Shown: positions 8,065-64,000 of the stretch, one piece after another
How the letters are laid out: the number at the start of each line of letters is the position of its first letter
How positions within the stretch are numbered: the stretch's first letter is position 1
NCBI GenBank assembly: GCA_017134395.1
Contig: CP070993.1
Location: 526,199 to 590,198 of the forward strand
DNA length: 64,000 nucleotides
DNA from: Candidatus Kaiserbacteria bacterium
GTDB lineage: Bacteria > Patescibacteriota > Minisyncoccia > Phycocordibacterales > UBA2100
Direction of reading: 5' to 3'
Position numbers and translations under genes: made by a program
The notes under the pieces: generated by a model
Told to the model about the DNA's origin: nothing
The model's input: the letters and a program-made list of their open reading frames with translations, nothing else
Database searches by the model: none

Positions 8065-9528
8065 CTAGGATACGTGATGCTTTTTTCGAAGCGCTTCTAT
8101 TTCTTTTTCGTCCTCTTCTTCCCTTCTGTCTTTTCCTTTTTCTCCAAGTTTTTGTAACTCGTTTATTGGCAATTGAGCTAATTCAGCAGCCCTGTCTTCA
8201 AGGTATTCAGGGGTGTTTTGTTTTGGCTCATCAAGAACCTCTTCAAGAAGTGCATGGAGTATCCATCCTACTTTTGGTCCTGGCCCGTCACCTAATATTT
8301 CAATAATTTTGTCGCCATTAATTTTGAGCATAGCAACTGAAATAGGATCACGAAGCGCTTCGTCAACCATGGATTTGTATTTGCGAAAACGAAATGGTTG
8401 TTCTTTTGGCCGGCCCGTACCAATGCGATCGCAGGTGCGTAATTCAAGCAGTTCCTGAATGTGGTCAACTCCAACATTTTGTATCATTCGACGAACTGCA
8501 CTGAGAGTTATTTGGTCAGGGTCGGAGAAAAACATATGCCAACGGACGAGCTTCTCTACGTTGTGTGCAGTATCTTTTGGAAATTTCAAGTCTCTTAATA
8601 TTTTGCGTGTCATACGCGCTCCAATAACTTCGTGCCCATAGAATGTGTAATCATTTTTTACTGTGTCACGACGTCGGCTTTCTGGTTTCCCTATGTCGTG
8701 TAGTAATGCAGCAAGGCGTACATCAAAAGAATAGTTTTTGTCTGCGGCATGCTGTAGGCTGCGCATAAGGTGTTCGAACACATCGTATGAATGCGCTTGG
8801 TTTTGCTCACATCCAATACCCTCTTTGAGTTCAGGAATGATGTATTCCATTAATCCTAAGCGTTGTGCAAAAAATACTGCCTGCATCGGCGTGTCTGATG
8901 CAACGATTCGCATGAGCTCGTCTCGTACGCGTTCTTGAGAAACTTTTTCAATAAGCTGCGCATGCTCTGCTATTGCCGAGGCAGTTTTTGATTCGATTGT
9001 GAAGTTGAGCTCAGCTGCAAGGCGTATTGCACGCATCATACGTAGTGCGTCCTCTGTAAAACGATCTGTAGCTTCCCCGACAGTAACAATACGTTTTAAT
9101 CGTATGTCCTCTACCCCTTTATATGGGTCTACAAGCTCGTCGCGCGTTGGATTGTATGCTATGGCATTCATCGTGAAATCACGTCGCTGTAGGTCGTCTG
9201 TGAGATTCTTGCTAAATGTTACTTCATCAGGATGGCGCGCGTTGCTGTATGTTGATTCGATTCTATAAGGGGTCACCTCGACCACTTTGAGCGTGGGGTC
9301 GTCAGACTCCGTTTTTACACCGACAGTCCCAAAATCATTTTCATAGAAAGAATCAGGAAATATTTTTTGAATTTCCTCAGGGTTAGCGTTTGTAGTAAGA
9401 TCCCAATCTTTAGGAATCTTGTTGCGTATAAGATCGCGCGTACAACCCCCTACGAGGTATGCTTCGAAACCAGCATTCTCTAATGTCGTAACAATGGTAA
9501 GAACTTCTTGCGGTACAGAGTGTCTCAT
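8065..9528 (-). CDS. cca: CCA-adding tRNA nucleotidyltransferase (pol-beta NTase head plus HD domain)
   Basis: N-terminal GGCTRDLI… NTase motif, HD motif LLHDIGK; 487 aa. Confidence 0.85.
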   Translation of the reverse strand: MRHSVPQEVLTIVTTLENAGFEAYLVGGCTRDLIRNKIPKDWDLTTNANPEEIQKIFPDSFYENDFGTVGVKTESDDPTLKVVEVTPYRIESTYSNARHPDEVTFSKNLTDDLQRRDFTMNAIAYNPTRDELVDPYKGVEDIRLKRIVTVGEATDRFTEDALRMMRAIRLAAELNFTIESKTASAIAEHAQLIEKVSQERVRDELMRIVASDTPMQAVFFAQRLGLMEYIIPELKEGIGCEQNQAHSYDVFEHLMRSLQHAADKNYSFDVRLAALLHDIGKPESRRRDTVKNDYTFYGHEVIGARMTRKILRDLKFPKDTAHNVEKLVRWHMFFSDPDQITLSAVRRMIQNVGVDHIQELLELRTCDRIGTGRPKEQPFRFRKYKSMVDEALRDPISVAMLKINGDKIIEILGDGPGPKVGWILHALLEEVLDEPKQNTPEYLEDRAAELAQLPINELQKLGEKGKDRREEEDEKEIEALRKKHHVS

Positions 9529-9586
9529 TGCTCAATTGTAGTACACCTATTGCTATGAAGCGAATATACCGTATGATTGCCAACAC

Positions 9587-9658
9587 GCACCCGTGGTGAA
9601 ATGGATATCATTACGGTCTTCGGAACCGTCGTTGGGGGTTCGAGTCCCTCCGGGTGCA
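9587..9658 (+). tRNA. tRNA-Arg (anticodon TCG), no encoded CCA
   Basis: hand-folded cloverleaf: acceptor GCACCCG/CGGGTGC, D-stem GTGA/TCAT, anticodon stem ACGGT/ACCGT with loop CTTCGGA, T-arm GGGGG-TTCGAGT-CCCTC. Confidence 0.8.
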
Positions 9659-9723
9659 CAAATGGCCGCCCACAAAGCATTGCTTTGTGGGCGTTTGCCA
9701 TTTCCACACCCGGAGGGACTCGA
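9639..9723. repeat. ~85-bp imperfect palindrome containing the tRNA-Arg 3' end and its inverted copy around an inner hairpin
   Basis: ttcgagtccctccgggtg…cgcccacaaagca|ttgctttgtgggcg…cacccggagggactcgaa; also makes mirrored artefact ORFs on both strands. Confidence 0.75.
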
Positions 9724-9948
9724 AAAGAGTCGTCGGTATACAAGATAATGAAGCGAAGCGAAATTAGGCTTGTCGGCGACGTCGGGGCAGCGAGTACTTA
9801 GCAAGGCCGCAGCCGAGCTTAGTACTGGCGCCGAGTCCCCACTTTGTAAGAGGTCATGAAGGCGTCAGGAAAATTATTCGTGACCGAGTCCCTCCCCCAC
9901 TTCACAAAATTGCACCACGCCTAATTTGATATATAATCACTCTCACTT

Positions 9949-9977
9949 GCGGCTATATGAAACAAGCATATAGCCGC
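9949..9977. repeat. hairpin formed by a copy of the first 9-11 nt of tRNA-Gly(GCC) and its complement
   Basis: gcggctatatg-aaacaag-catatagccgc; tcaCttgcggctata here versus tcaTttgcggctata at the real tRNA 5' end (10104-10118). Confidence 0.6.
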
Positions 9978-10109
9978 GGCGTTCAGACACAATGTCTACG
10001 CAAAGCGCATTGATGTCCCCCGATTTCACGTTCTTGTAAGCGAGCTTCCAGAAACATGAAATCGGAGCACATCTTTCTGCAAAATGCAGAAGCGCTCTGC
10101 TCTTCATTT

Positions 10110-23455: not shown

Positions 23456-23676
23456 AGTTTTTTAGGTTACCACACTGATTTTTGTAAAAAGAAAGACCGG
23501 CACAAGCCGGACTATTCATAAACAGTATGTGCTACGCAGTATACCTACTGCTTGTAATCAAGTCAATACTACTGAGGTCTTGCATAAAGGTGCTTCTACA
23601 CAGTAAAAAAGGGCTTTAAATGCGGCATTTGGTATACTTACATACAAGAGGGTGCAGTAAGCACTCGTGTTATCAC

Positions 23677-25422
23677 ATGTACATTAATGACGAACAACTT
23701 CGTGAATTTTTAAGCGACTCAGGACTTGTTTCGCAGAAAAAATTCGATAACGCTGTAAAAACAGCGACAGAAAAAAGCATTACGGTGAGTGAAGTGTTGG
23801 TTTCAGAAGGAGAGATTTCTGAAGACGATTTGCGACGCTCGCACGCGTACGTACTTGGTATTCCTTTTGTTAATTTGTCTGATTCAAAACCAGATCTTAA
23901 TACTCTGGCTCTTATTCCAGAACCTATTGCGCGACGTAATAATATTGTTGCGTTTAGGCAAGAAGAGAACAATTTGGAAGTTGCCATGCTTGATACGGAT
24001 GATTTGGCAGCGATTGATTTCGTAAAGAAGAAGACGCAGCTTAAGATTCTGCCGCGACTTACTGACGCTGCATCAATTAAACAGATGCTTCGCTTGTACC
24101 AAAAGACACTTCGCGACGAATTGGGAGATGTAATTACGCGTGAATCACAAACGCTTGAAAAGTTTGGAAAATTACAACCAGAGAACGAAAAGGATTTACG
24201 AAAACTTGCAGAAGGAGTTCCTGCTGTACGAGTGCTTGATTCATTACTGCGCCACGCAATTGTACAAAATGCATCTGACATACATATAGAGCCACAAGAA
24301 GACGCGCTGTTAGTTCGCTATCGTATTGATGGAATTTTGCATGACGCTATGTCACTGCCAAGTAGTGCCACTGCTTCGATTACTGCACGTGTAAAAATTT
24401 TGGCCAACTTACGGTTGGATGAAAAAAGACTCCCTCAAGATGGGCGGTTCAGAATGGAGACAGATGGCGATAGGGTGTCATTCCGTGTTTCAGTGCTACC
24501 GACGTATCATGGAGAAAAAACAGTTATGCGATTGTTGCGCGAAGACGTTTCTGGATTCACATTAGAATCTCTTGGCTTTCATGGTGAGGGGCTTGAACGC
24601 TCACATGATGCTACTAGAAAGAAAACTGGGTTGATTCTTGTTACAGGCCCAACCGGTTCTGGTAAGTCAACAACTCTCTATACTATGTTGGATATTTTAA
24701 ATACTGCAGACGTCAATATTTCAACAGTTGAAGATCCGATTGAGTATCAGATGAAGCGCATAAACCAAACACAAGTTCGACCAGACATTGGATTCACATT
24801 CTCTACAGGGCTTCGGTCACTCGTCCGGCAAGACCCTGATATTATTATGGTTGGTGAAATTCGAGACCGCGAAACTGCGGCGTTAGCCATTAATGCAGCA
24901 CTTACTGGCCACCTTGTGCTTTCAACGCTTCACACCAATTCAGCAGCTGGCGCAGTGCCACGTCTTATTGATATGGGGGTAGAGCCTTTTTTACTTGCAT
25001 CAACATTGCAAGTAGTTATTGGCCAACGACTTGTTCGTACACTGTGTAACGATAGAGAAGAATACAAACTATCCGCCGCCGAAATTAGGGGTCTGGAAGA
25101 GATGGCCGACTTAGGGGCCGTACTGAAGGCATTAAAAGAAGAAGACATTGTTTCCCAAAAAAGTACATTTAAAAATGTTTCTCTTTCAAAAGAAAAGCCA
25201 ACAAAAGAATGTGAGACGGGTTACAGTGGACGAAAGGGAATTCAAGAAGTACTGCCGGTGACAGAAGGAATTAAAAAAATGATTCTTTCAGGGTCTTCAG
25301 CTGATGCTATTGAAGATCAGGCACGAAAAGAGGGGATGCTTACCATGCTTGAGGATGGTATTTACAAAAGCGCATCAGGAACGACGAGTCTTGCCGAAGT
25401 ACTTCGTGTGGTAAGTGAATAA
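23677..25422 (+). CDS. pilB: type IV pilus assembly / type II secretion ATPase (PilB/GspE family)
   Basis: Walker A GPTGSGKST, GspE N-domain, Asp and His boxes; 581 aa from the Met at 23677. Confidence 0.9.
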   Translation: MYINDEQLREFLSDSGLVSQKKFDNAVKTATEKSITVSEVLVSEGEISEDDLRRSHAYVLGIPFVNLSDSKPDLNTLALIPEPIARRNNIVAFRQEENNLEVAMLDTDDLAAIDFVKKKTQLKILPRLTDAASIKQMLRLYQKTLRDELGDVITRESQTLEKFGKLQPENEKDLRKLAEGVPAVRVLDSLLRHAIVQNASDIHIEPQEDALLVRYRIDGILHDAMSLPSSATASITARVKILANLRLDEKRLPQDGRFRMETDGDRVSFRVSVLPTYHGEKTVMRLLREDVSGFTLESLGFHGEGLERSHDATRKKTGLILVTGPTGSGKSTTLYTMLDILNTADVNISTVEDPIEYQMKRINQTQVRPDIGFTFSTGLRSLVRQDPDIIMVGEIRDRETAALAINAALTGHLVLSTLHTNSAAGAVPRLIDMGVEPFLLASTLQVVIGQRLVRTLCNDREEYKLSAAEIRGLEEMADLGAVLKALKEEDIVSQKSTFKNVSLSKEKPTKECETGYSGRKGIQEVLPVTEGIKKMILSGSSADAIEDQARKEGMLTMLEDGIYKSASGTTSLAEVLRVVSE

Positions 25423-25425
25423 TAT

Positions 25426-26634
25426 ATGAAGTTCACCTACAAAGCAGAACGAGATGGGGAGACGTACACTGACACTATTGAAGCAACTGATAGGTTTGAG
25501 GTGTATAGACATGTGAGAGCAGAGGGGGGAACGGTGATTTCGGTTACCTCGGAAGCACAAAACAACTGGAGTCTTACGTATTGGAATTCTAAATTTTCGA
25601 CAGTAAAAGAGCACGACAAAATTGTGTTCGCATCAAACCTTGCAGCCATGATTTCAGCCGGACTTCCGATATCGCGTGCGCTTTCAGTTGCAGAGAGACA
25701 GGCAAAAAACCCCAAACTAAAAAGCGTTATCTTGCATGTGCGTGGGGATATTCAAAAGGGCGGCACGTTTCATGAGGCGCTTGGTAGATTTCCTAATATA
25801 TTTTCTAAATTATTTGTCGCAATGGTTCGCGCAGGTGAAGAGTCAGGAACACTCGATGAGGCACTTACGACAGTTGGAAACCAACTTCAACGCTCATACG
25901 AACTGAAGAAAAAAATTAAAGGAGCACTTATTTATCCAAGTATTATTGTAGTGGCTATTGTTGGTATTGGTTTTCTGATGATGACTGAAGTAGTACCAAC
26001 ACTTTCGAAGACATTTACAGAATTAGGAGCTGATCTCCCCAAGGCAACGCAGGCGATTATTAATGTGAGTGATTTTTTGGTGAATTACACACTCCTTGTA
26101 CTACTTGGCGTTTTGGGTTCTGTTGCAGGGGTATATGGAATTTTACGAACAGCTGGTGGTCAGCGTGGCAGAGATAAGATTCTCCTAACGACTCCTTTAA
26201 TTGGTGAGCTTGTGAAAGAAATTAATGCAGCACGAACTGCACGGACATTTGCTTCGCTCCTAGCGGCTGGGGTAGATATTCTTACTGCACTTCAAATTAC
26301 TGGCGAAGTTGTACAAAACCACTATCACAAAGATGTGCTTAAAGCAGCAGCAGAAAAAGTTCAAAAGGGAGGGCAGCTTTCGGATACATTTATGAAACGA
26401 GAAGATCTCTACCCGCCGCTTATGGGTGAGATGATAGCAGTAGGTGAAGAGACAGGTGCACTTGCTGACATGCTTTTACGTGTAGCTACTTTTTACGAAG
26501 GCGAGGTTGAACAAAAAACAAAAAATATGTCGACAATTATTGAACCATTTCTCATGTTAATCATTGGTGTGACTGTCGGGTTCTTCGCAGTTGCGATGAT
26601 AGGACCTATTTACTCTCTCTCTGAGGCTTTCTAA
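25426..26634 (+). CDS. pilC: type IV pilus inner-membrane platform protein (PilC/GspF family)
   Basis: two GspF repeats, 3 TM helices, 402 aa, immediately downstream of pilB. Confidence 0.9.
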   Translation: MKFTYKAERDGETYTDTIEATDRFEVYRHVRAEGGTVISVTSEAQNNWSLTYWNSKFSTVKEHDKIVFASNLAAMISAGLPISRALSVAERQAKNPKLKSVILHVRGDIQKGGTFHEALGRFPNIFSKLFVAMVRAGEESGTLDEALTTVGNQLQRSYELKKKIKGALIYPSIIVVAIVGIGFLMMTEVVPTLSKTFTELGADLPKATQAIINVSDFLVNYTLLVLLGVLGSVAGVYGILRTAGGQRGRDKILLTTPLIGELVKEINAARTARTFASLLAAGVDILTALQITGEVVQNHYHKDVLKAAAEKVQKGGQLSDTFMKREDLYPPLMGEMIAVGEETGALADMLLRVATFYEGEVEQKTKNMSTIIEPFLMLIIGVTVGFFAVAMIGPIYSLSEAF

Positions 26635-27201: not shown

Positions 27202-27798
27202 ATGAAATATTACGCATCACAGCGCGGATTTACTTTATTAGAAGCAGTTGTATTACTGGGCGTGTTTGTTTTGATTGTCGGCGCTATTGTTTCTTCACTA
27301 CGGTATGTCTATCGAGGTCAGCGGTTTGCTTTTGAACAAGCTGATGCGACGCGTTCAGCTCGAACTGGTATTGAACGCGCGGTGCAAGATTTACGCGAAG
27401 CATCAGATGCAGACAATGGCGCGTATCCTATTGTATCGATGGCAACAAGCAGCGTTTCTTTCTATAGTGACTACGACAATGACAATAAAATTGAACAGAT
27501 TCGGTATTTTATAGATGGGACAGATTTCAAAAAAGGAATTATAGAATCTAGTGGAGACCCTCCTGTGTACAATGGGGGAAGTGAGGTGGTGACAACTATT
27601 GCAACTGAGGTTCGTAATAATGTAATCGGTACACCTATGTTTACTTACTATGATAAGAGTGGGGTATTTATGAATGACTATACTGATATCGACCAACTGG
27701 CTTTTGTGACGCTACGACTTGTTGTTAATCTGCACCCAGAACGCGCGCCTGATGATTTTGAGCTCAGAAGTAGCGCCGCACTCCGTAACATTAGATAA
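27202..27798 (+). CDS. type IV pilin-like protein
   Basis: canonical prepilin signal RGFTLLEAVVLLGVFVLIVGAI. Confidence 0.75.
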   Translation: MKYYASQRGFTLLEAVVLLGVFVLIVGAIVSSLRYVYRGQRFAFEQADATRSARTGIERAVQDLREASDADNGAYPIVSMATSSVSFYSDYDNDNKIEQIRYFIDGTDFKKGIIESSGDPPVYNGGSEVVTTIATEVRNNVIGTPMFTYYDKSGVFMNDYTDIDQLAFVTLRLVVNLHPERAPDDFELRSSAALRNIR

Positions 27799-27799
27799 T

Positions 27800-29218
27800 A
27801 TGAAACATTCTTCACAAAAGGGAATCGTAATTATTTTAGTGCTGGTGTTTGCAGCAGTATTTGGATTGTCAGTTTCTGCTCTCACAAGTTTTATATTTAG
27901 CCAGGCGCAATTAGGGGCTGGAAAAGAAGTGCGCGAACAGGCGCTGAATATAGCCGAAGCAGGTCTTGAATACTATCATTGGTTCCTTACTCACAACCCT
28001 GGAGATACCCAAGACGGAACTGGAGGCCTCGGGCCGTATGTACACACCTATTCTGATCCAGAAACCGGTGAAATAGGTTCGTTTAGTTTAGATATTGTTG
28101 GAAATGAGTCTTGTGGAATACTGCAGTCAATAGACGTCACATCAACTGGCACCGTGAATTCCGACCCCAAATTTACTCGAACTGTTTTTGGGAGACATGC
28201 TGCTCCTTCTGTTGCTGAATACTCGTACATTATCGGGGACGACGTATGGGCTGGTGCTGATCGTGAAATTACCGGACCCTATCATTCAAATGGAGGCATA
28301 CGGATGGATGGGACCAACAACTCAGTGGTAACGAGTGCTGTCTCAACGTGGTCTCAGAGTTTCAACTGCAACGGTGGGAGTGCATCCCCGGGCGTGTGTG
28401 GTGACGGGCCAAATTCTACGCTCTGGCGATACCCTGCTTCTGAGTTGAGCTTTAGTGATATAGAGGCTAATTTCTCGAGTATAAAAACAGCAGCAATTGC
28501 GGATGGTATTTATCTTGCGCCATACGGCTCAACTGAAACCTACATCTTTAATCCTTACGGAGGTCCAACAGACACTGCGGCTGATGGGTACCACTTGATT
28601 TTTAATGCAGATGGAACAGTTGATATATATCAAGTTACCAGCACGACAGGATATTGGGGGTATCTTTCGGGCATTGGGTACACAGCCGATTACCATATTA
28701 TAAGTGGAGAGTCTTTTATAGAGCGACGTACAGTACCTACAGATTGTTCAGTTATCTTTGTTGAAGATAAAGTATGGATTGAAGGAACAGTAAAAGGAAA
28801 AGTAACAGTCATAGCAGCAGATTTGGTGAATTCTGGATATGATCCAGATGTAATTATCTCTGGTGATATTGATTACTCTGTACAAGATGGTTCAGATGGC
28901 CTTACTGTCATCAGTGAATTTGGTATCTACCTACCGAGAGACTCCGCTGATACACTTTCAATACACGGTATTTTTGTCGCACAAGGAGATAGATTTGGTC
29001 GACCATATTATAGCGGTAGTTTAAAGACGCAATTAACAATAAAAGGATCTATTGTGTCGAGTCAACGAGTAGGAACTTCTTGGTCATCAGGATCTACTAT
29101 TATTTCAGGTTACCAGAATCGGGATAGCATATATGATCGACTACAGACAACAAACCCGCCTCCATTTACGCCATCGAGGACGCTCATTCCTGAATATATT
29201 CTTTGGCAAGAACTGTAG
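27800..29218 (+). CDS. large pilus-associated protein (minor pilin/PilX-like N-terminus, big C-terminal domain)
   Basis: N-terminal hydrophobic helix QKGIVIILVLVFAAVFGLSV; pilin-operon context; Gly/Ser/Thr-rich C-terminal domain. Confidence 0.5.
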   Translation: MKHSSQKGIVIILVLVFAAVFGLSVSALTSFIFSQAQLGAGKEVREQALNIAEAGLEYYHWFLTHNPGDTQDGTGGLGPYVHTYSDPETGEIGSFSLDIVGNESCGILQSIDVTSTGTVNSDPKFTRTVFGRHAAPSVAEYSYIIGDDVWAGADREITGPYHSNGGIRMDGTNNSVVTSAVSTWSQSFNCNGGSASPGVCGDGPNSTLWRYPASELSFSDIEANFSSIKTAAIADGIYLAPYGSTETYIFNPYGGPTDTAADGYHLIFNADGTVDIYQVTSTTGYWGYLSGIGYTADYHIISGESFIERRTVPTDCSVIFVEDKVWIEGTVKGKVTVIAADLVNSGYDPDVIISGDIDYSVQDGSDGLTVISEFGIYLPRDSADTLSIHGIFVAQGDRFGRPYYSGSLKTQLTIKGSIVSSQRVGTSWSSGSTIISGYQNRDSIYDRLQTTNPPPFTPSRTLIPEYILWQEL

Positions 29219-31544: not shown

Positions 31545-33272
31545 ATGACTAAATCCAAAGCATACACAGTACGAAAAAAACCGAGCGAAACAGTACGGAA
31601 AGCACTCAAAGAATTTCCAGATTTTGTACAGGAAATTTTGGCAGCTCGGGGTATAAAAACACATAAAGCTGCACAAGATTTTTTTAATCCAAACTACGAT
31701 GAACAAGTATATGATCCATTCCTTTTGCACGACATGGATGTTGCTGTTACACGGATCATAAAAGCAATCGATAATAACGAACATATTGCTATCTACAGCG
31801 ATTTTGACGCAGACGGTATTCCCGGTGGTGCGCTGTTACACGACGTATTCAAAAAGATTGGCTACGAGCGTTTCACAAACTATATCCCACACAGAGACAC
31901 AGAAGGGTATGGTTTTCATAAGGAGGCAGTCGATACTCTCTTAAAGAAGGAAGTATCGCTTATTATAACGGTGGATGTCGGCATTACGAATGGTGAAACG
32001 GTTACGCATGCCAATACATTAGGAGTCGATGTTATTGTTACTGACCATCATATTCCTAGTAAAACACTGCCTGATGCAGTTGCTGTTGTGAACCCGCAAC
32101 GCGAAGATGAAACATACCCATTTCGGTTTTTTTGCGGGACAGGTGTGGCGTTCAAATTAACTCAGGCACTTTTTATTCGGGCGCGAGAGCAAGACAAAGA
32201 CTGGGTTAAAGATGTTCCGGAAGGGTGGGAAAAATGGTTGCTCGATTTAGTTGCTATCGCGACTGTTGGTGACATGGTTCCGCTTGTCGGTGAAAACAGA
32301 ACATTGGTGCACTACGGACTGACTGTGTTGCACAAATCACGACGACCAGGAATTACTGCACTATGTCGTAAGTTGGGTATCGGGCAGGCGTACATTACAG
32401 AAGATGACATCGGATTTTCTATTGCGCCACGAATTAATGCAGCTTCGAGAATGGGAACTCCTGAATTAGGATTTCGATTGCTTACGACTGTTGATGGTGC
32501 AGAAGCCGCAGACGTCGCGCGCGAGTTAGAATCTCTTAACAATAAACGTAAAGGAAGTGTTGCGAGTATTACGAAAGAGTTAAAGAAACGTTTTGAAGAA
32601 AATTCAGATGGAGCAGTTCTTGTTGCAGGAAATCCAAATTGGAATCCAGCATTACTTGGGCTTGCTGCTAACTCTCTTGTAGATACGTATGGAAAGACGG
32701 CGTGCTTATGGGGACGGGAAGGCACCGGAAGTATCAAAGGGTCATGTCGTGGGAACGGAAACGTAAATGTCGTAGATATGTTTAATCACGCAAGTCATAC
32801 TCTTGTACAATTTGGCGGACACGAACATGCGGGAGGTTTTTCTGTTGATGCAGACAAAGTGCACATTATGGAGGATGCTTTTAACAGTGCGTACAAGGAA
32901 CTTTCAAAAGGGGTCAAACTGTTAGTGCCAGAAGCTGATGCTGTTTTGCCGCATGCGTCATTACGCGAAACGCATAAAGTACTTTCACAATTTGCTCCGT
33001 TTGGTATGGGGAATTCCAAACCAGTATTTGTATATAAAAGTGCTCTTGTACGTTCGTTGAAACAATTTGGAAAAGAAGAGGCACATATAGAATTACATCT
33101 GGCAGCTGATGAATTTGAGAATACTGTTCGAGCGATTGCGTTCTTTAAAAACCCACAATCATTTTCACGAACCCCAGAACAAGATCGTGTCGTTGACGTT
33201 CTGTGCACTATAGAGCTCTCACGTTTTGCTGGTCGCGTAAATCTTGAGCTACGCATTGTGGATATTGTGTAA
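31545..33272 (+). CDS. recJ: single-stranded-DNA-specific exonuclease RecJ (DHH/DHHA1)
   Basis: IAIYSDFDADGIPGGALL, DHH motif VIVTDHH, DHHA1 GGHEHAGG. Confidence 0.85.
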   Translation: MTKSKAYTVRKKPSETVRKALKEFPDFVQEILAARGIKTHKAAQDFFNPNYDEQVYDPFLLHDMDVAVTRIIKAIDNNEHIAIYSDFDADGIPGGALLHDVFKKIGYERFTNYIPHRDTEGYGFHKEAVDTLLKKEVSLIITVDVGITNGETVTHANTLGVDVIVTDHHIPSKTLPDAVAVVNPQREDETYPFRFFCGTGVAFKLTQALFIRAREQDKDWVKDVPEGWEKWLLDLVAIATVGDMVPLVGENRTLVHYGLTVLHKSRRPGITALCRKLGIGQAYITEDDIGFSIAPRINAASRMGTPELGFRLLTTVDGAEAADVARELESLNNKRKGSVASITKELKKRFEENSDGAVLVAGNPNWNPALLGLAANSLVDTYGKTACLWGREGTGSIKGSCRGNGNVNVVDMFNHASHTLVQFGGHEHAGGFSVDADKVHIMEDAFNSAYKELSKGVKLLVPEADAVLPHASLRETHKVLSQFAPFGMGNSKPVFVYKSALVRSLKQFGKEEAHIELHLAADEFENTVRAIAFFKNPQSFSRTPEQDRVVDVLCTIELSRFAGRVNLELRIVDIV

Positions 33273-34784: not shown

Positions 34785-36224
34785 ATGCATCGATTTCTCC
34801 CCGTACTCTTCGGGGCGTTTGCCTTAGGAATTGCAGTCAGATCATTTTATGAATTTGGATTGACTTTCGTAGGGCTCTTTGTTTTGAGTGCTCTTAGCCT
34901 ATTGTTTGTTTCACGGCGCAGACTCTTCGTGGTATGTGCAATAGCCCTTTTGTTCTTTGCGCTTGGTGTTGGACGTATGCACGTTGCGGTACCGGTTACG
35001 ATTACGAACATAGAGGTACACACAGAAGACATTGTTGTATTTGAAGGAGTGGTTATAAAAGAACCAGATATTCGAGATACCTACACCAATATAGTTGTCG
35101 CACGCACTGATACAAAACAAAAAGTACTTGTACGGATAACTCCATTTGAAGAGGTTCACTACAAAGACGAAGTCGCGATACGAGGAATCCTTGAAGCACC
35201 TGAAAATTTTGAGGGCGAAGGAGGCAGGATTTTTAATTACAGAGCGTATTTAGCAAAGGATGCTATTTACAGCATCGCTCCGTTTCCTGAATTTGAAGTA
35301 CTTACGAGTAATTCAACACCAACAGGTTTACTTCTCACGCTCAAAGGGGCGTACTTAGCATCTCTCAAGAGTGTTCTTCCCGAGCCTTCAGCGGCACTCG
35401 CTGGTGGAATTACTGTAGGTGAGAGGCGTTCATTAGGCGATGAGCTCACGCAAGATTTTCGCGATACGGGGCTCATACATATTGTAGTGCTCTCTGGTTA
35501 CAATATTGCCATTGTGGTGCTGTTCATTGTAGCGATGCTTTCGTTTCTACCGCCCAAGCCGAGACATCTCGTTGCTATAGGTGGTATTTTTGTATTTACT
35601 ATCCTCGTCGGTGCTTCAGCGACTGTCGTGCGTGCCGCAATAATGGGAAGCATCGCGTCGTTGGGGGTTGTCGCGGGTCGTACCTATGCGGCACTCTACA
35701 CGCTCGTGCTTGCCGGATTTGCTATGCTGCTGTGGAATCCGTATCTATTAATATATGACCCATCATTTCAGCTCAGTTTCGTAGCAACTGCTGGGCTGTT
35801 ACTTGGAGTTCCGATACTTTTACCGTATCTCCATTTCGTACCCGAAAACTATGCATTGAAGGACATTTTTGCAGCTACCATTGCAACGCAAATCGCCGTA
35901 CTTCCGTTACTGGTGTACATGATAGGGGATGTTTCATTGGTAGCAGTACTCGTTAATCTTCTCGTACTTCCTACAATACCGTTGGCGATGCTCTTTGTGT
36001 TTTTAACTGGTGTAGTAGGAATGGTATACCAACCATTTGCACTTTTGTTTGGGTTTATCGCCCATGCGTTCTTATCGTATGTCATTTTACTCGTAGAGTT
36101 TTTTGCTGACGTTCCATTTGCGGTTGTTAGTCTGCCGACTTTTTCTTTTGTATTTGTGCTTGCTGCATACGGGCTACTGACTGCACTCGTGTGGTATATA
36201 CAAAGAAAAAACGACCCAGCATAG
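34785..36224 (+). CDS. comEC: ComEC/Rec2 competence channel protein, membrane (N-terminal/competence) part only
   Basis: ~10 TM helices, competence-domain motif GLIHIVVLSGYNIAIV; no metallo-beta-lactamase domain in this ORF. Confidence 0.75.
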   Translation: MHRFLPVLFGAFALGIAVRSFYEFGLTFVGLFVLSALSLLFVSRRRLFVVCAIALLFFALGVGRMHVAVPVTITNIEVHTEDIVVFEGVVIKEPDIRDTYTNIVVARTDTKQKVLVRITPFEEVHYKDEVAIRGILEAPENFEGEGGRIFNYRAYLAKDAIYSIAPFPEFEVLTSNSTPTGLLLTLKGAYLASLKSVLPEPSAALAGGITVGERRSLGDELTQDFRDTGLIHIVVLSGYNIAIVVLFIVAMLSFLPPKPRHLVAIGGIFVFTILVGASATVVRAAIMGSIASLGVVAGRTYAALYTLVLAGFAMLLWNPYLLIYDPSFQLSFVATAGLLLGVPILLPYLHFVPENYALKDIFAATIATQIAVLPLLVYMIGDVSLVAVLVNLLVLPTIPLAMLFVFLTGVVGMVYQPFALLFGFIAHAFLSYVILLVEFFADVPFAVVSLPTFSFVFVLAAYGLLTALVWYIQRKNDPA

Positions 36225-59398: not shown

Positions 59399-59989
59399 AT
59401 GTATGGAAAGAAACAGGTGCTTGTTATTGCAGGTCCCACGGCAAGCGGAGAGAGTACATTTACTCGCGAGCTCATAGATTCTTTTGATAATTTTACTAAG
59501 TTGATTTCAGCAACTACGCGAAAACCGCGTTTAAATGAACAACATGGTGTTGATTATTATTTCTTTACTAAAGAGGAATTCTTTAAGGAGGTTGAGGCTG
59601 GCAATATCATTGAGCACACGCATGTAGCAAACAGAGATGCCTATTACGGTGCGTATAAACCAGACCTCGACGCGAAACTCATTAAACATCTCAATGTCAT
59701 AGCAAATACTGATCCGAAGGGCGCTAAATTCTTTAAAGATAATTACGGGGCTACAACAATTTTTTTACGACCAAAATCTTTAGAAGTTATTGAGGACAGG
59801 TTACGACGGCGTGATCCAGATATTACCGAAGAGGAAGTACAGAAGCGTGTTTTGAGTGCCAAAAAAGAAATAGAGGAAGCAGAGGGGCGTTTCGACCATA
59901 TTGTATGGAATACAGACGGGGAGTTTGCTGACACCATATTTAATGTGGTTGAGATTTTGAAGCAAGAAGGCTATAGTGTCCCGGAATAA
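59399..59989 (+). CDS. guanylate kinase-family protein with non-canonical P-loop (GPTASGES)
   Basis: GMK signatures ATTRKPRLNEQHGVDYYF; Walker-A Lys replaced by Glu. Confidence 0.7.
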   Translation: MYGKKQVLVIAGPTASGESTFTRELIDSFDNFTKLISATTRKPRLNEQHGVDYYFFTKEEFFKEVEAGNIIEHTHVANRDAYYGAYKPDLDAKLIKHLNVIANTDPKGAKFFKDNYGATTIFLRPKSLEVIEDRLRRRDPDITEEEVQKRVLSAKKEIEEAEGRFDHIVWNTDGEFADTIFNVVEILKQEGYSVPE

Positions 59990-59994
59990 CTAAT

Positions 59995-60564
59995 ATGCAT
60001 CTGAAAAATATAGTAATTATTTCTGGGCCATCTGGTGCTGGCGAGGACTCTGTTATTGAAGGTCTGAGTGAGCACGTAACAGTGAATCGAGTAATAACTA
60101 CTACGACACGAAGTCCAAGAGAGGGAGAGAGTGATGGCGAGGATCATTACTTTATTTCGAAAGAGGATTTTGAGGAACGTATCGAAAGTGGCTCAATGAT
60201 AGAATGGGCAAAACAATACAATGGGAACTTTTATGGTGTTACAAAAGAAGAGCTGCAACGAGTAAATGATCTAGATGGAGTTGGAGTATGGAAAATTGAA
60301 TATCAAGGAGTTATTACTGCAAAGAAACTTTTCCCAGACATAATATCCATATTTCTCATGGCGGAGTCACTTGAGGTGTTAGAAGACCGTATAAGGGCCC
60401 GTTCTGATGTTTCAGAAGAGTTTATAGCTGAGCGTATGAAATATACGCAAGAGTGGCTCAAACACGCTGATATATACGATTATTCACTTATTAATAAACA
60501 AGGACTGTTACACGAGACTATACAGGAGGTCGTGGACATTCTTCGTAAAGAACAGTATCTTTAA
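59995..60564 (+). CDS. guanylate kinase-family protein, second paralog, with non-canonical P-loop (GPSGAGED)
   Basis: TTTRSPREGESDGEDHYF; Walker-A Lys replaced by Glu and Ser/Thr by Asp. Confidence 0.7.
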   Translation: MHLKNIVIISGPSGAGEDSVIEGLSEHVTVNRVITTTTRSPREGESDGEDHYFISKEDFEERIESGSMIEWAKQYNGNFYGVTKEELQRVNDLDGVGVWKIEYQGVITAKKLFPDIISIFLMAESLEVLEDRIRARSDVSEEFIAERMKYTQEWLKHADIYDYSLINKQGLLHETIQEVVDILRKEQYL

Positions 60565-60571
60565 GCACGTT

Positions 60572-61168
60572 ATGAATGAAACAAAAGCAAAGACAGTTCT
60601 TTTTTTCGGACCTTCAGGTGCAGGAAAAGGGACACAGGTAGAACTATTAAAAGAGCATCTTGCAAAAAAGTCAGACAGAAAAATTGTGTACATTGAAATG
60701 GGAGGGCTGTTGCGTGCAATGGTTGCCCGAGGTGACCTAACTGGCAAGTTAACACATGAAATTATTTCAAACGGTAAACTCATGCCCAGTTTTATGCCGA
60801 TATACTTACTAACTCAGTACCTCGTAGATAACTTTACTGGCGAAGAACATATTGTTGCAGATGGCGTTACGAGACGAGAAGGACAGGCAAAGGCGTTTGA
60901 TGACGCGATGGCATTTTACGGACGTGAAGATTACGAAGTTGTTTTGATGGAACTTTCTCCTGAGGTGGCACTTGAGCGATTGCTTGCCCGCGGACGTAAC
61001 GATGATTCTGAAGAAAAGATACAGCGGCGAATTGATTGGTACAATAAAGATGTACTTCCCGCACTTGATGTAATGAAAGAAAGAGGACGTACAATTCACA
61101 GAATTGACGGTGCTCCAGAAGTTGAGGAAGTACATAAAGAAATTTTAAAAGCATTACAGCTTGCATGA
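60572..61168 (+). CDS. adk: adenylate kinase (short, no zinc lid)
   Basis: FFGPSGAGKGTQ canonical P-loop; position after secY as in spc operons. Confidence 0.85.
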   Translation: MNETKAKTVLFFGPSGAGKGTQVELLKEHLAKKSDRKIVYIEMGGLLRAMVARGDLTGKLTHEIISNGKLMPSFMPIYLLTQYLVDNFTGEEHIVADGVTRREGQAKAFDDAMAFYGREDYEVVLMELSPEVALERLLARGRNDDSEEKIQRRIDWYNKDVLPALDVMKERGRTIHRIDGAPEVEEVHKEILKALQLA

Positions 61169-61920
61169 TAATCCGAACGGAAACAGATCGAGATAACTTA
61201 CGAGAAGGAGGGCGACGCCTTGCTACTATATTACGCAAAGCGTCAGAAAAAGCTGTAGCAGGTGTATCCTTAAAAGATATTGACTCATATATTCTCTCTC
61301 TTATAGAAGAATACGGTGACACACCGTCATTTACTGGTTACGGAGAGCCGCCATTTTCTGGCGTATTTTGTTTGTCAGTAAACGATGGGATTGTGCATGG
61401 TATTGCGAACGAATACGAACTTATTGAAGGGGATCTGCTAAAAATCGATGGAGGTATTTGGCACGAAGGATTGTGTACTGATTCAGCGATTACTATTGGA
61501 ATCGGTACTATCGCAAAAGAAGATCAGGAACTTATATGGGCAACGAAAGAAGCACTTAATGCACAAATTAGAGTTGCGGTAGCAGGAAATACCATTGGAG
61601 ATATCGGTCATGCCGCTGAGGAGATAGCAAAAAAGCACGGATACGGATTTCCAAAAGAGTTAGGTGGTCACGGCGTTGGCCTTCAAGTACATGAGCCTCC
61701 GTTTATTGCAAACTACGGAAAGAAGGGTACTGGCGAAGTATTAAAAGCAGGTGATGTGCTTGCACTCGAGCCGATGTTTGCCAGAGGTTCTGGAAAGATA
61801 CGTCTTGCCAACGACGGATGGTTGTATGAAATGGTAGACGGTTCACAAAGTGCTCACTTTGAACATTCAATTATTGTTGGGGAAATAGAGGCAGAAGTGT
61901 TGACAGTCGAAAACGAATAA
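61165..61920 (+). CDS. map: methionine aminopeptidase type I
   Basis: pita-bread fold metal ligands (D…D…H…E…E pattern), 251 aa, follows adk. Confidence 0.9.
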   Translation: MIIRTETDRDNLREGGRRLATILRKASEKAVAGVSLKDIDSYILSLIEEYGDTPSFTGYGEPPFSGVFCLSVNDGIVHGIANEYELIEGDLLKIDGGIWHEGLCTDSAITIGIGTIAKEDQELIWATKEALNAQIRVAVAGNTIGDIGHAAEEIAKKHGYGFPKELGGHGVGLQVHEPPFIANYGKKGTGEVLKAGDVLALEPMFARGSGKIRLANDGWLYEMVDGSQSAHFEHSIIVGEIEAEVLTVENE

Positions 61921-61945
61921 ACGTACAGCGCGGTATAATATCGAT

Positions 61946-64000
61946 ATGCCGCACATGGAAGGGTCAACACCTGATGTATCCTCAACAGAACCCGTTGAGC
62001 GTTTTCGCACACCAGAGGAAGAACTTGCGTACTTACGCGAACGGGTGCGTATAAAAGAAACTGAACTTGAAGGAGAAAAGTCAGGCTTCGAGAAAGACAG
62101 AATTGCAAAAAGAGAAATTATTAAATATCACGATACCCCGGCCGAAGATGTTCTACACGAACGATACCAAACGTCAGAAAGTCATATATTACGCGAAAAA
62201 CTACGTCTCGAACCCGAAGAGCATGATGTACAGATTGATGAGCTTTTGAAAATGGTGGCAGATAAGGGTATTAAAAATACTCTCGCAGTGGTAAGTAAGA
62301 TGGGTAGTGCACATCTTGAAGATGATTTACATCGAGCGCTTGTTCAGTATGTTGCTGAAGGATTTTCAACACAGGGAGTACGGAAAGGCTCTGAAGACTG
62401 GAAAGCGTTACACATGGTCCTCTATGAGGTTTCGCTTCCAGCCCAAACTGCAAACGACAAAAATAATCAAAACCAAGATCTCGAAAAACTTCTTGCATCC
62501 ATGGAGCAATTTTATGCTGGGATGCTGAGTGTTATGGGAAAGGGAAAACTCCAGAAAAAAGATATTTTTTCTGTTGAGATTGCAGTGCATCAAGGAAGCG
62601 AAGAGGCGATTTTTTATGTTGGGGTACCACGCAAAAAAAGAGATTTGTTTGAACGACACCTTATTTCCATATTTCCTAACGCTCAAATCGAAGAAGTGCG
62701 CAGTGATTACAATATTTTCAGTTATGGAGGAGTTCACGCTGGGGCATATGGTGTTCTCGAAAGAAGTCCGGTGTATCCAATAAAAGAATACAAAGAATTT
62801 GTGCACGATCCACTAAACATCGTACTTTCAGCATTCAGCAAGCTTAAAAAACATGGAGAAGGAGCGGCTATTCAATTTATTATTGGCGACGACGGAGATT
62901 CATATAACCGCCAATATAAAAAGGTAGTTGATTATCTTCGCGATGGAAAAGAAGCAAAAAAGGCAATACGTCATGGAACATCACCATTTCGTGAAGCAGT
63001 AGACGCGCTTGGTGAGAATCTTGTTGATATAGCGATGAATCGCTCAAAGAATACGATAAACGATAAAGCAGTTGATCAAATGACTCTCGAGACAATCACT
63101 AAGAAGGTTAATAGTCGTATTGTTCCAGTAAACATTCGTATACTTGCTTCAGCACAAGAAGAGGGTCGTGCGGAGGACATTATTGAAAACATTGCATCAA
63201 CATTTAACCAATTCGAAGAAGCGCAGGGTAATGCAATCAAATTTATCCACGAACGTGGCGCAGCATTACGGAAATTCATGCACGCATTCACTTTCCGGAC
63301 ACTCAACTTTAAAAGACTACAGCCGCTTTCTCTTACGGAACTGACATCCATGTACCATCTTACGGGACAAGGAGTTTCAACATCGCGTGAACTTAAACAA
63401 ACACGTGCAAAACATGTTTCAGCTCCTATTGAAGTATCTGCAGACGAAGACGACGAAGAGCCAGTACAAAAGGCACCTTACGTACCAACTCCTGCACCTG
63501 TTGACCAACATAAAGAAGAAGTAGTTGCCCCAGCCCCAATGGCGAATACACAAAAAAGACGTGGTGTAATACTCGGAAAGAACACGTTTGGCGGTACTGA
63601 TACGATGGTCAAGTTCTTAGCGGAAGACCGTATGCGTCACTTCTACGAAATTGGACAAACGGGAACAGGTAAAACAAACCTGATGAAGAATATGATCATT
63701 CAAGATATTAAGAACGGAGAGGGGTGCTGTTACATTGATCCACATGGTTCAGATATTGTTGATATTTTGGCAGCTATTCCACCTGAAAGACACGACGATG
63801 TTATCTATTTCGACCCAAGTTACACAGAACGCCCGATGGGTCTTAACATAATGGAATATAATCCAGATTTTCCTGAGCAGAAAACGTTTGTAGTAAACGA
63901 AATATTCAGTATTTTTGAAAAACTTTTCTTGGCAAAATCACCTGAGTCGCTTGGCCCGATGTTTGAGCAGTACTTCCGTAACGCTGCACTTTTGGTGCTT
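61946..64000 (+). CDS. large P-loop NTPase (TraD/VirD4/HerA-like ATPase domain) with ~550-aa unique N-terminal region; 3'-truncated by the window edge
   Basis: open frame from the ATG at 61946 to the window end with no stop; Walker A YEIGQTGTGKTN followed by CCYIDPHGSDIV…VIYFDPS; absent from the ORF track only because it is incomplete. Confidence 0.6.
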   Translation, partial: MPHMEGSTPDVSSTEPVERFRTPEEELAYLRERVRIKETELEGEKSGFEKDRIAKREIIKYHDTPAEDVLHERYQTSESHILREKLRLEPEEHDVQIDELLKMVADKGIKNTLAVVSKMGSAHLEDDLHRALVQYVAEGFSTQGVRKGSEDWKALHMVLYEVSLPAQTANDKNNQNQDLEKLLASMEQFYAGMLSVMGKGKLQKKDIFSVEIAVHQGSEEAIFYVGVPRKKRDLFERHLISIFPNAQIEEVRSDYNIFSYGGVHAGAYGVLERSPVYPIKEYKEFVHDPLNIVLSAFSKLKKHGEGAAIQFIIGDDGDSYNRQYKKVVDYLRDGKEAKKAIRHGTSPFREAVDALGENLVDIAMNRSKNTINDKAVDQMTLETITKKVNSRIVPVNIRILASAQEEGRAEDIIENIASTFNQFEEAQGNAIKFIHERGAALRKFMHAFTFRTLNFKRLQPLSLTELTSMYHLTGQGVSTSRELKQTRAKHVSAPIEVSADEDDEEPVQKAPYVPTPAPVDQHKEEVVAPAPMANTQKRRGVILGKNTFGGTDTMVKFLAEDRMRHFYEIGQTGTGKTNLMKNMIIQDIKNGEGCCYIDPHGSDIVDILAAIPPERHDDVIYFDPSYTERPMGLNIMEYNPDFPEQKTFVVNEIFSIFEKLFLAKSPESLGPMFEQYFRNAALLVL

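Follow-up and report, generated by a model that had tools for sequence, protein, structure and literature searches.

A predicted DUF8128 protein with a VirD4/VirB4-class ATPase domain and without a detectable membrane anchor, encoded next to map in Candidatus Kaiserbacteria

What might a large P-loop ATPase be doing directly after map, at the end of the secY-adk-map block of a Candidatus Kaiserbacteria bacterium? The question was raised by a 64,000-nt stretch of contig CP070993.1 (assembly GCA_017134395.1, positions 526,199 to 590,198), called the window here, in which a reading frame opens with ATG at position 61946 of the forward strand and runs through 685 stop-free codons to the window edge at 64000. 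A first-pass annotation, made from the letters alone, had described one continuous frame that was missing from the list of open reading frames (ORFs). Translation confirmed both points, and the gene is missing from that list because ORFs running off the source are not listed. The gene is real, native and conserved across Paceibacteria lineages. Its product is, with high confidence, a protein of ~985 aa that combines DUF8128 with a VirD4/VirB4-class ATPase domain; about 70% of it would lie inside the window and ~300 codons beyond the edge. For its function we tentatively favor a soluble DUF8128 translocase, a DNA-handling motor that works independently of a type IV secretion system (T4SS).

When 5.8 billion proteins were searched with the window fragment, more than 980 homologues (~915-990 aa) were found, the best one 93% identical over 100% of the fragment; the ORF is therefore far beyond chance. 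P0001, a full-length relative of 987 aa, is 93% identical across 100% of the fragment, and its 90% cluster contains QSH39275.1 (Kaiserbacteria) and marine (Tara) copies. Nearly all of the 120 best homologues had been pre-annotated with PF26449 (DUF8128) and PF12696, and the gene in the locus of a 93%-identical relative (L001) is labelled DUF8128, TraG-D_C. The DUF8128 assignment of the window protein is based on these precomputed annotations and on homology to P0001. The family order was found as expected, i.e., an N-terminal PF26449 followed by an ATPase of the kind found in type IV coupling proteins (T4CPs), ~900-990 aa in total. NCBI names the homologues 'TraM recognition domain-containing protein'. 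Those with a named source come from Kaiserbacteria, Parcubacteria, Minisyncoccia or Patescibacteria, mostly Paceibacteria/Parcubacteria. A scan of GTDB species representatives gave 424 confirmed loci, 80 of which were retained for the species-level statistics below; their labels include Kaiser-, Nomura-, Zambryski-, Taylor-, Campbell-, Adler- and Niyogibacteria, Paceibacteria and other patescibacterial names. We also searched 1.84 billion representatives exhaustively by phmmer, with the first 495 residues as the query, and 897 proteins were detected, 125 of them at E<=1e-30. Full-length carriers measured ~800-1,120 aa, and the shorter entries resemble contig fragments. The literature search found no paper mentioning DUF8128. 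We concluded that one group of ultra-small bacteria of the candidate phyla radiation (CPR) has this gene in its conserved core; the gene is already catalogued, with function unassigned.

The 685-aa fragment showed no significant match to PDB sequences, and in Pfam and NCBIfam it gave only sub-threshold P-loop matches (DUF87, TrwB_AAD_bind, TraD), so that a full-length relative was needed for family assignment. P0001 exceeded the Pfam gathering cutoffs of TraG-D_C (29.7 bits, cutoff 22), TrwB_AAD_bind (22.4 bits, cutoff 20.5) and DUF87. It fell far short of every curated NCBIfam cutoff for T4CPs (TIGR03743, 39.6 vs 366; NF045973, 37.2 vs 250; TIGR03754, 24.8 vs 648) and that of the VirB4 model TIGR00929 (15.8 bits vs 643). 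The three motifs pointed out in the first-pass annotation were all located in frame: the Walker A sequence GQTGTGKT at residues 570-577 (63653-63676), CCYIDPHGSDIV at residues 594-605 and VIYFDPS at residues 619-625. Walker B (YIDEFQNF) and the R850/K851 and H860/Q861 pairs lie beyond the window and were read in P0001. Alignment A1 was made from 104 full-length members and has a mean column identity of 54%; in it, the Walker A residues G-Q-T-G-x-G-K, Walker B D832-E833, R850-K851 and H860-Q861 are invariant.

When the full-length model was compared with PDB structures by Foldseek, the best match was TrwK/VirB4 of R388 (~950 columns, E 3e-14, TM-scores 0.25/0.31). TrwB ranked next and fitted the C-terminal domain over 420-450 columns, with target-normalized TM-scores (TMt) of 0.62-0.68, followed by Cag-beta and HerA. 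A profile of the ATPase domain scored T4CPs (TrwB, 6e-8; PcfC, 3e-5; Tn916 Orf21, 5e-6) above VirB4 proteins (TrwK, 0.067; PrgJ, 0.019; Orf16, 0.24), and was about equally near to TrsE/VirB4 (8e-8) and TrsK/T4CP (5e-7) of pGO1. Judged from its sequence, the C-terminal domain is shown to be a motif-intact ATPase of the VirD4/VirB4 class (FtsK-HerA superfamily). The HMM (hidden Markov model) and structure searches that had been proposed thus gave TraG-D_C, DUF87 and TrwB_AAD_bind above their gathering cutoffs together with the TrwB superposition, in agreement with the large TraD/VirD4/HerA-like P-loop ATPase of the first-pass annotation. A match to a well-characterized housekeeping ATPase was also looked for, and none was found.

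Alignment A1 divides the protein into four segments: a weakly conserved tip, a conserved N-terminal region to residue ~490, a hypervariable linker and the ATPase domain, which is highly conserved. The N-terminal half had been thought novel and devoid of recognizable motifs. The second statement holds as far as the local Pfam copy goes, in which the N-terminal region of the fragment matched no model, but it fails against the precomputed Pfam annotation (PF26449/DUF8128) and the 38 invariant positions found in this region among 105 sequences. Novelty must be given up, since the region is catalogued as DUF8128, is homologous to phage proteins of PHROG 5156 and has a VirB4 N-terminal-like fold in models (see below). 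AlphaFold2 (AF2) models built with A1 reached a mean predicted local distance difference test score (pLDDT) of 85.4 and a predicted TM-score (pTM) of 0.67 for the full-length protein, and 81.2 and 0.74, respectively, for the N-terminal 495 residues. In the core block, pLDDT is mostly 84-97 and drops at residues ~160-180 and ~350-380, and the linker has pLDDT <50 and column conservation of 0.06-0.33. No transmembrane anchor was detected: the maximum of the 19-residue Kyte-Doolittle window stays below 1.6 in 103 of the 104 members, the single window above the threshold falls within the ATPase domain, and none of the 104 has a hydrophobic helix within its N-terminal ~750 residues.

The helical extension that precedes the core contains the motifs EEHD (residues 91-94, 62216-62227) and HLEDDLHR (residues 123-130, 62312-62335); H93, D94, H123, D126, D127, H129 and R130 (window numbering) are invariant in 105 sequences. 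An HMM of the extension did not match the phage proteins, and the extension had no match among PDB sequences. Some family members of ~800 aa (P0252, P0264, P0234) are without the helical segment, and it is therefore an add-on to the core. The His/Asp cluster may form a metal-binding or catalytic site, and an HD-like metal site would be a guess. In one 690-aa protein from the search of representatives (P0149), a Peptidase_M16_C domain (208-362) precedes the DUF8128 alpha/beta core (358-689) in place of the helical extension; its core is 41% identical to that of the window protein, and the arrangement may be a genuine exchange of domains, or else an artefact of gene calling or assembly. The bc1 core protein 2, which has an M16-type fold, gave a non-significant profile match (E 0.9).

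In a Foldseek search of PDB with the N-terminal model, all 14 matches at E<=1e-3 were TrwK/VirB4 chains. The best had an E value of 9e-7, the alignments covered 411-434 columns with query-normalized TM-scores (TMq) of 0.31-0.36, and the 457-residue chain 8rtd_h among them gave a TMt of 0.39; the next fold was ~100-fold weaker. Sequence comparison gave no such signal. Neither the fragment nor P0001 matched the VirB4 N-terminal families PF03135/PF27097 in Pfam, and HMM and hhalign comparisons of DUF8128 with the N-terminal regions of TrwK, PrgJ, Orf16, TrsD and TrsE, an underpowered test, were negative. Against a profile of 25 VirB4 N-terminal sequences DUF8128 reached 0.5% probability in hhalign; that profile also misses the N-termini of the genuine Gram-positive TrsD and TrsE, and the test therefore has low power. 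The positive control on the ATPase domain worked (92%).

The N-terminal region has relatives in phages. The N-terminal model matched Bacillus phage G gp156 in the BFVD viral structures (E 1.9e-16, TMq 0.45); further matches were one protein each from phages JL and Slash, gp155 of phage G, and an entry labelled 'Component of type IV transporter system'. A tblastn search detected 45 phage records, 38 of them from Bacillus phages, and a single continuous alignment with phage Nachito covers residues 150-935. An HMM of the N-terminal core detected gp156 at 3.6e-13 (hhalign 87%, 265 columns) and SPO1 gp27.4 at 2.9e-9, and the ATPase-domain HMM detected them at 1e-40 and 7e-28, respectively. Both are full-length members of PHROG 5156 (profile positions 1-818). 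P0001 matched the same PHROG at 9e-74 in two stretches, the best over positions 383-813 of 824; by sequence it is a relative of PHROG 5156, not a typical member. Nothing was found in the literature on SPO1 gp27.4. This gene adjoins genes annotated as 'replication initiation by nicking' and 'partition protein', and in the gp27.4-gp27.3 segment (L091, 3744-7281) it overlaps the start of the nicking gene, which is arranged like a T4CP-relaxase pair by analogy. In phage G, gp155 and gp156 (L090, 2193-6335) are adjacent ATPase genes whose products both fold-match the DUF8128 N-terminal model and, again by analogy, are reminiscent of a VirB4/VirD4 pair; the PHROGs label 'terminase large subunit' for the gp155 family is doubtful.

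Relatives of the ATPase domain alone (33-35% identity) occur on 588 bacterial and archaeal plasmids, of which 426 are non-mobilizable. The domain of Bradyrhizobium WP_247904195.1 was matched at a profile E of 1.7e-93 (hhalign 100%). Among cellular proteins, the ATPase domain has its closest relative in a 708-aa protein of Bradyrhizobium sp. 131 (plasmid p131_1; L085, 6053-8179), which is encoded among CHAT-domain and TPR proteins, a setting that suggests a conflict or defence system with a T4CP-like motor. We also considered the ~315-aa N-terminus of the Bradyrhizobium protein as a DUF8128 homologue; HMM and hhalign comparisons were negative. In PADLOC the best match of the family was mad8 (2e-13), confined to the ATPase domain. 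Membership in a defence system was rejected on this result and on the genomic context, which is not an island.

The genomic setting is indeed one of housekeeping genes. Upstream are the genes for ribosomal proteins S5 and L15, secY, two guanylate-kinase-like genes, adk and map, so that the gene adjoins the secY-adk-map block directly after map, as had been noted. The competence genes, described as its neighbors, proved to be distant: ComEC and PilB/PilC are 25-38 kb upstream. Relatives at 93%, 73% and 46% identity retain the order rp operon-secY-gmk-adk-map-X-ndk (X being the ATPase gene), with an RNase J-like gene, VanY, rplT/rpmI/infC and similar genes after ndk. In the species-level loci, where neighbors were identified by tblastn with few query proteins and by ORF clustering, map was found <=3 kb upstream in 27 of 65 and ndk <=3 kb downstream in 33 of 67; ndk, the RNase J-like gene and map are near the gene in many of them. 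Only housekeeping neighbors were found in the 80 loci, which were not screened for T4SS genes. Among the genes called within 10 kb on each side in loci of relatives (L001-L004; three fully annotated loci for the T4SS genes) there was no VirB4, VirB6, relaxase, integrase, effector nuclease or defence gene; the nuclease or VirB4-like partner that had been expected downstream is thus absent there. Because the neighbors of the relatives are housekeeping genes without T4SS, relaxase or nuclease genes, a conjugation or defence island is unlikely, contrary to what had been suggested, and a role in DNA uptake or export is speculation. The gene has a GC content of 0.417 and a GC3 (third codon positions) of 0.33, like the neighboring genes, and horizontal acquisition was rejected on these values.

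How does the protein compare with systems already known? With the T4CPs (VirD4/TrwB/TraD/TraG; Pfam TrwB_AAD_bind, T4SS-DNA_transf and TraG-D_C) it shares the nucleotide-binding fold, including the helical insertion, and invariant Walker A/B and Arg/Gln motifs, but the family has a soluble N-terminal region of ~490 aa in place of the N-terminal transmembrane domain, no relaxase or T4SS linkage in L001-L004 and ~17% identity to TrwB. VirB4/TrwK provides the best full-length structural match and the same layout, in which an alpha/beta domain at the N-terminus is joined to a C-terminal ATPase, whereas the TM-scores are just 0.25-0.39, the VirB4 models fail and the gene is not beside VirB3, VirB6 or VirB8. 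The PHROG 5156 proteins, homologous in the alpha/beta core and the ATPase, are the closest two-domain relatives found outside Patescibacteria. They differ in the absence of the helical His/Asp extension, in identity (~21-26%) and in their location in phage replication regions, beside a nickase (SPO1) or the second ATPase gp155 (phage G). For HerA, the DUF87 matches in the family cover just ~40-75 residues around the P-loop, the combination of HAS-barrel and NurA was not found, the fold ranks below VirB4 and TrwB, and there is no nuclease neighbor in L001-L004. Compared with FtsK/SpoIIIE, the family has no transmembrane segment, and FtsK_SpoIIIE gave only sub-threshold P-loop matches in a few members. 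The plasmid T4CP-like ATPases (WP_247904195.1, mad8), most of them carried by non-mobilizable plasmids, are related in the ATPase and differ in N-terminal regions unrelated to DUF8128 and in the CHAT/TPR neighborhood.

Orphan T4CP-like ATPases of Patescibacteria have been published before. In the passages of a recent survey used here, VirB4 was reported in 2,417 of 3,035 Patescibacteria genomes and 5,713 T4CP homologues in 2,918 of the 3,035, with 148 near virB4 (Quinonero-Coronel et al., 2025; PMC12102498). According to Table S3 of that survey, the genome of one family locus (L029) has one t4cp1, at 87% coverage and away from virB4, together with two t4cp2 and, separately, a VirB3/VirB4 cluster; the t4cp2 matches are of the TcpA/FtsK type and separate from t4cp1, and several other genomes have t4cp1 but no VirB4. 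The DUF8128 family is very probably the single t4cp1 hit per genome of the survey, judged by an indirect match for the L029 genome. Domain architecture, the lack of an anchor, the N-terminal domain, relatives in phages and the map-ndk synteny are not described in these passages. New in this work are the missing membrane anchor, the VirB4-like N-terminal fold, the two-domain PHROG 5156 homologues and the conserved map-ndk position.

We propose that the protein would assemble into a ring, like TrwB, VirB4 and HerA, and that ATP would drive a polymer, most likely DNA, through the central pore. The N-terminal alpha/beta module would replace the membrane anchor of the coupling proteins as an assembly or docking module, and the helical His/Asp module might add a further binding or catalytic site. 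Such a protein could serve as a housekeeping DNA-handling motor independent of a conjugation-type channel. A soluble ring translocase is most likely; independence from a T4SS, taken by itself, we put forward with still more reserve than the favored reading as a whole. A channel-independent role is preferred because relatives occur in phages and on non-mobilizable plasmids without evident T4SS, and because T4CP homologues are present in more Patescibacteria genomes than VirB4 in the survey passages cited above.

Several points weigh against this proposal. For ring formation and a DNA substrate we extrapolate from relatives that are distant (17% identity to TrwB). The VirB4 likeness of the N-terminal region comes from Foldseek alone, with modest TM-scores (0.31-0.39), and the profile-profile comparison with the VirB4 N-terminus, a test of low power, gave no signal. 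The gap between 96% of genomes with T4CP homologues and 80% with VirB4 may come partly from incomplete metagenome-assembled genomes, and includes other T4CP-like families (t4cp2). In reduced genomes, genes may keep their order without being functionally coupled. The L029 genome also carries the separate VirB3/VirB4 cluster listed in Table S3, and an essential T4SS cluster of Saccharibacteria is without recognizable coupling or relaxase proteins (Wang et al., 2023; PMC10633639). For the last two reasons, a role as the coupling ATPase that the patescibacterial T4SS is missing is a serious alternative. The protein would then be a soluble coupling ATPase that docks on the chromosomal VirB3/VirB4/VirB6/TrsD complex via its VirB4-like N-terminal domain, and recruits or energizes protein or DNA transfer to or from the host cell. 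We consider this somewhat unlikely. It would explain a T4CP-type ATPase by Pfam that scores T4CPs above VirB4s in three of the four reference systems, joined to an N-terminal fold that matches only VirB4 in PDB (E<=1e-3); the VirB4 N-terminal domain reportedly contacts VirB3 and VirB8 in the published R388 structure. The exactly one t4cp1 beside a separate VirB3/VirB4 cluster in the L029 genome, the Saccharibacteria cluster without a coupling protein and the frequent location of T4CP genes away from virB4 in the survey would fit as well. No T4SS gene was found within 10 kb in the fully annotated loci, however, and T4CP homologues occur in more genomes than VirB4, with t4cp1 and no VirB4 in several of those tabulated. 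The two-domain homologues in SPO1-type phages and phage G have no T4SS channel annotated nearby. In S. epibionticum the T4SS is essential but a T4CP homologue, of the DUF8128 or another family, is not, and exaptation cannot be excluded according to the same passages (Quinonero-Coronel et al., 2025).

A divergent VirB4 paralogue acting in the assembly or energizing of a pilus or T4SS-like structure is very improbable in our estimate. The TrwK/VirB4 matches over both domains of the full-length model, the VirB4-only matches of the N-terminal model and the equal nearness of the ATPase profile to TrsE and TrsK would be accounted for, as would the two-domain layout without a predicted membrane helix; VirB4 proteins are of similar size and usually without a membrane anchor. 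This is countered by the score far below the TIGR00929 cutoff, by the absence of VirB4-type N-terminal Pfam families from every member scanned, by E values of just 0.02-0.24 for TrwK, PrgJ and Orf16, by the 0.5% probability of the N-terminal profile comparison, by low TM-scores (0.25-0.39) and by the distinct VirB4 that the L029 genome already has in Table S3. We give as little credit to a domesticated phage or plasmid ATPase for defence or anti-defence, or for extrachromosomal replication or partition, instead of host housekeeping. The homology to PHROG 5156, the nicking and partition genes beside SPO1 gp27.4, the CHAT/TPR island of the closest cellular ATPase relative and the mad8 match can be cited for it; the native GC and GC3, the housekeeping-block position conserved across species at 46-93% identity, the lack of any integrase, nuclease effector or defence gene called in the annotated loci and the size of the family, spread over many Paceibacteria lineages, all argue the other way. 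In addition, the family is not split by context into deep paralogue clades. We had considered two paralogous subfamilies defined by genomic context, and clustering showed one orthologue group instead: the loci away from map/ndk mostly group as one relocated sub-lineage, in which the gene is followed by a single-pass coiled-coil protein and then by FKBP and TGT.

A wider proposal, which we regard as doubtful, is that DUF8128 and PHROG 5156 constitute a third lineage of T4SS-type ATPases, with a VirB4-like soluble chassis and a T4CP-like motor, intermediate between VirB4 and the coupling proteins. It would have been fixed in Paceibacteria as a channel-free core translocase linked to the ribosomal operon, and its His/Asp module would be a new metal-dependent site. 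The VirB4-like front half bears on the divergence of the two T4SS ATPase families. Patescibacteria genomes are tiny, and a class-wide protein of ~1,000 residues is therefore likely to be important. The patescibacterial T4SS is essential in the one species tested, and nearly all members of the phylum have orphan T4CP homologues according to the survey passages cited. If the protein is the missing coupling ATPase, it bears on material exchange between epibiont and host; a channel-independent motor would likewise be of interest. Through the link to SPO1 gp27.4, Bacillus subtilis and its phage can serve as a genetically tractable proxy. For annotation, we suggest naming the gene a TM-less (transmembrane-less) DUF8128/T4CP-like ATPase and not reading it as a sign of conjugation or defence.

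The features of the window, and the protein encoded downstream of the gene in other loci, are collected in Table 1.

Table 1. Coordinates of the ATPase gene, its predicted segments and other features (window positions unless a locus is named).
Feature	Coordinates	Strand	Basis
First 685 codons of ~985-aa DUF8128/T4CP-like ATPase	61946..64000	+	translation
Helical N-terminal extension, residues ~18-150	61997..62395	+	all-helical in AF2 model
DUF8128 alpha/beta core, residues ~151-490	62396..63415	+	AF2, Foldseek, phage HMMs
Variable acidic/Pro-rich linker, residues ~491-540	63416..63565	+	conservation, pLDDT
Start of VirD4/VirB4-class ATPase domain, residues ~541-685	63566..64000	+	Pfam/NCBIfam matches over 544-634
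map (methionine aminopeptidase), upstream neighbor, last recognized gene of the rp-secY-gmk-gmk-adk-map block	61165..61920	+	Pfam Peptidase_M24, E 9e-39
map-ATG spacer, 25 nt, ACGTACAGCGCGGTATAATATCGAT	61921..61945	+	sequence
Tandem guanylate-kinase-family genes, 196 and 189 aa, between secY/adk	59399-59989, 59995-60564		
PilB	23620-25422		
PilC	25426-26634		
RecJ	31545-33272		
ComEC	34785-36224		
770-950-aa downstream protein	L023 8742-11330; L084 8760-11612; L024 5863-8721; L053 8780-11098		

In the spacer between map and the ATPase gene, the promoter/terminator scan (site counts at chance level) found no terminator-like hairpin, which suggests that the gene may be co-transcribed with the upstream operon. 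A perfect TATAAT lies 7 nt before the ATG in the spacer, where the consensus scan called no promoter; it could be a chance occurrence, or mark an internal or leaderless start. No purine run resembling a Shine-Dalgarno sequence is evident in the 25 nt. The tandem guanylate-kinase pair is kept in L001 and L002 and reduced to a single copy in the more distant L003. Together with adk upstream, and with ndk downstream in the relatives, these kinases form a nucleotide-kinase cluster around the ATPase gene.

The other genes of the window are housekeeping genes (PNPase, CCA-adding enzyme, RNase Y, NusA, EF-G). A 499-aa ORF at 27719-29218 (+), just 3' of PilB/PilC and without a Pfam match at E<=1e-5, may encode an uncharacterized pilus-associated protein. 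The 770-950-aa downstream protein of Table 1 is poorly conserved, with a low-complexity, coiled-coil-like N-terminus and 1-2 hydrophobic segments. It has no Pfam match and no homologue in the window, and could be a lineage-specific membrane partner.

In L001, the gap between map and the ATPase gene is ~750 bp long (9251-10000), AT-rich and with stops in three forward frames. It contains a hairpin at 9787-9823, formed by a perfect inverted repeat of 17 bp around a 3-nt loop (CCATCTGTGACCAAGGT-CGA-ACCTTGGTCACAGATGG); the repeat is absent from the window, where the junction is just 25 nt, and from the other loci. The gap could be a small insertion or an element similar to a miniature inverted-repeat transposable element (MITE-like).

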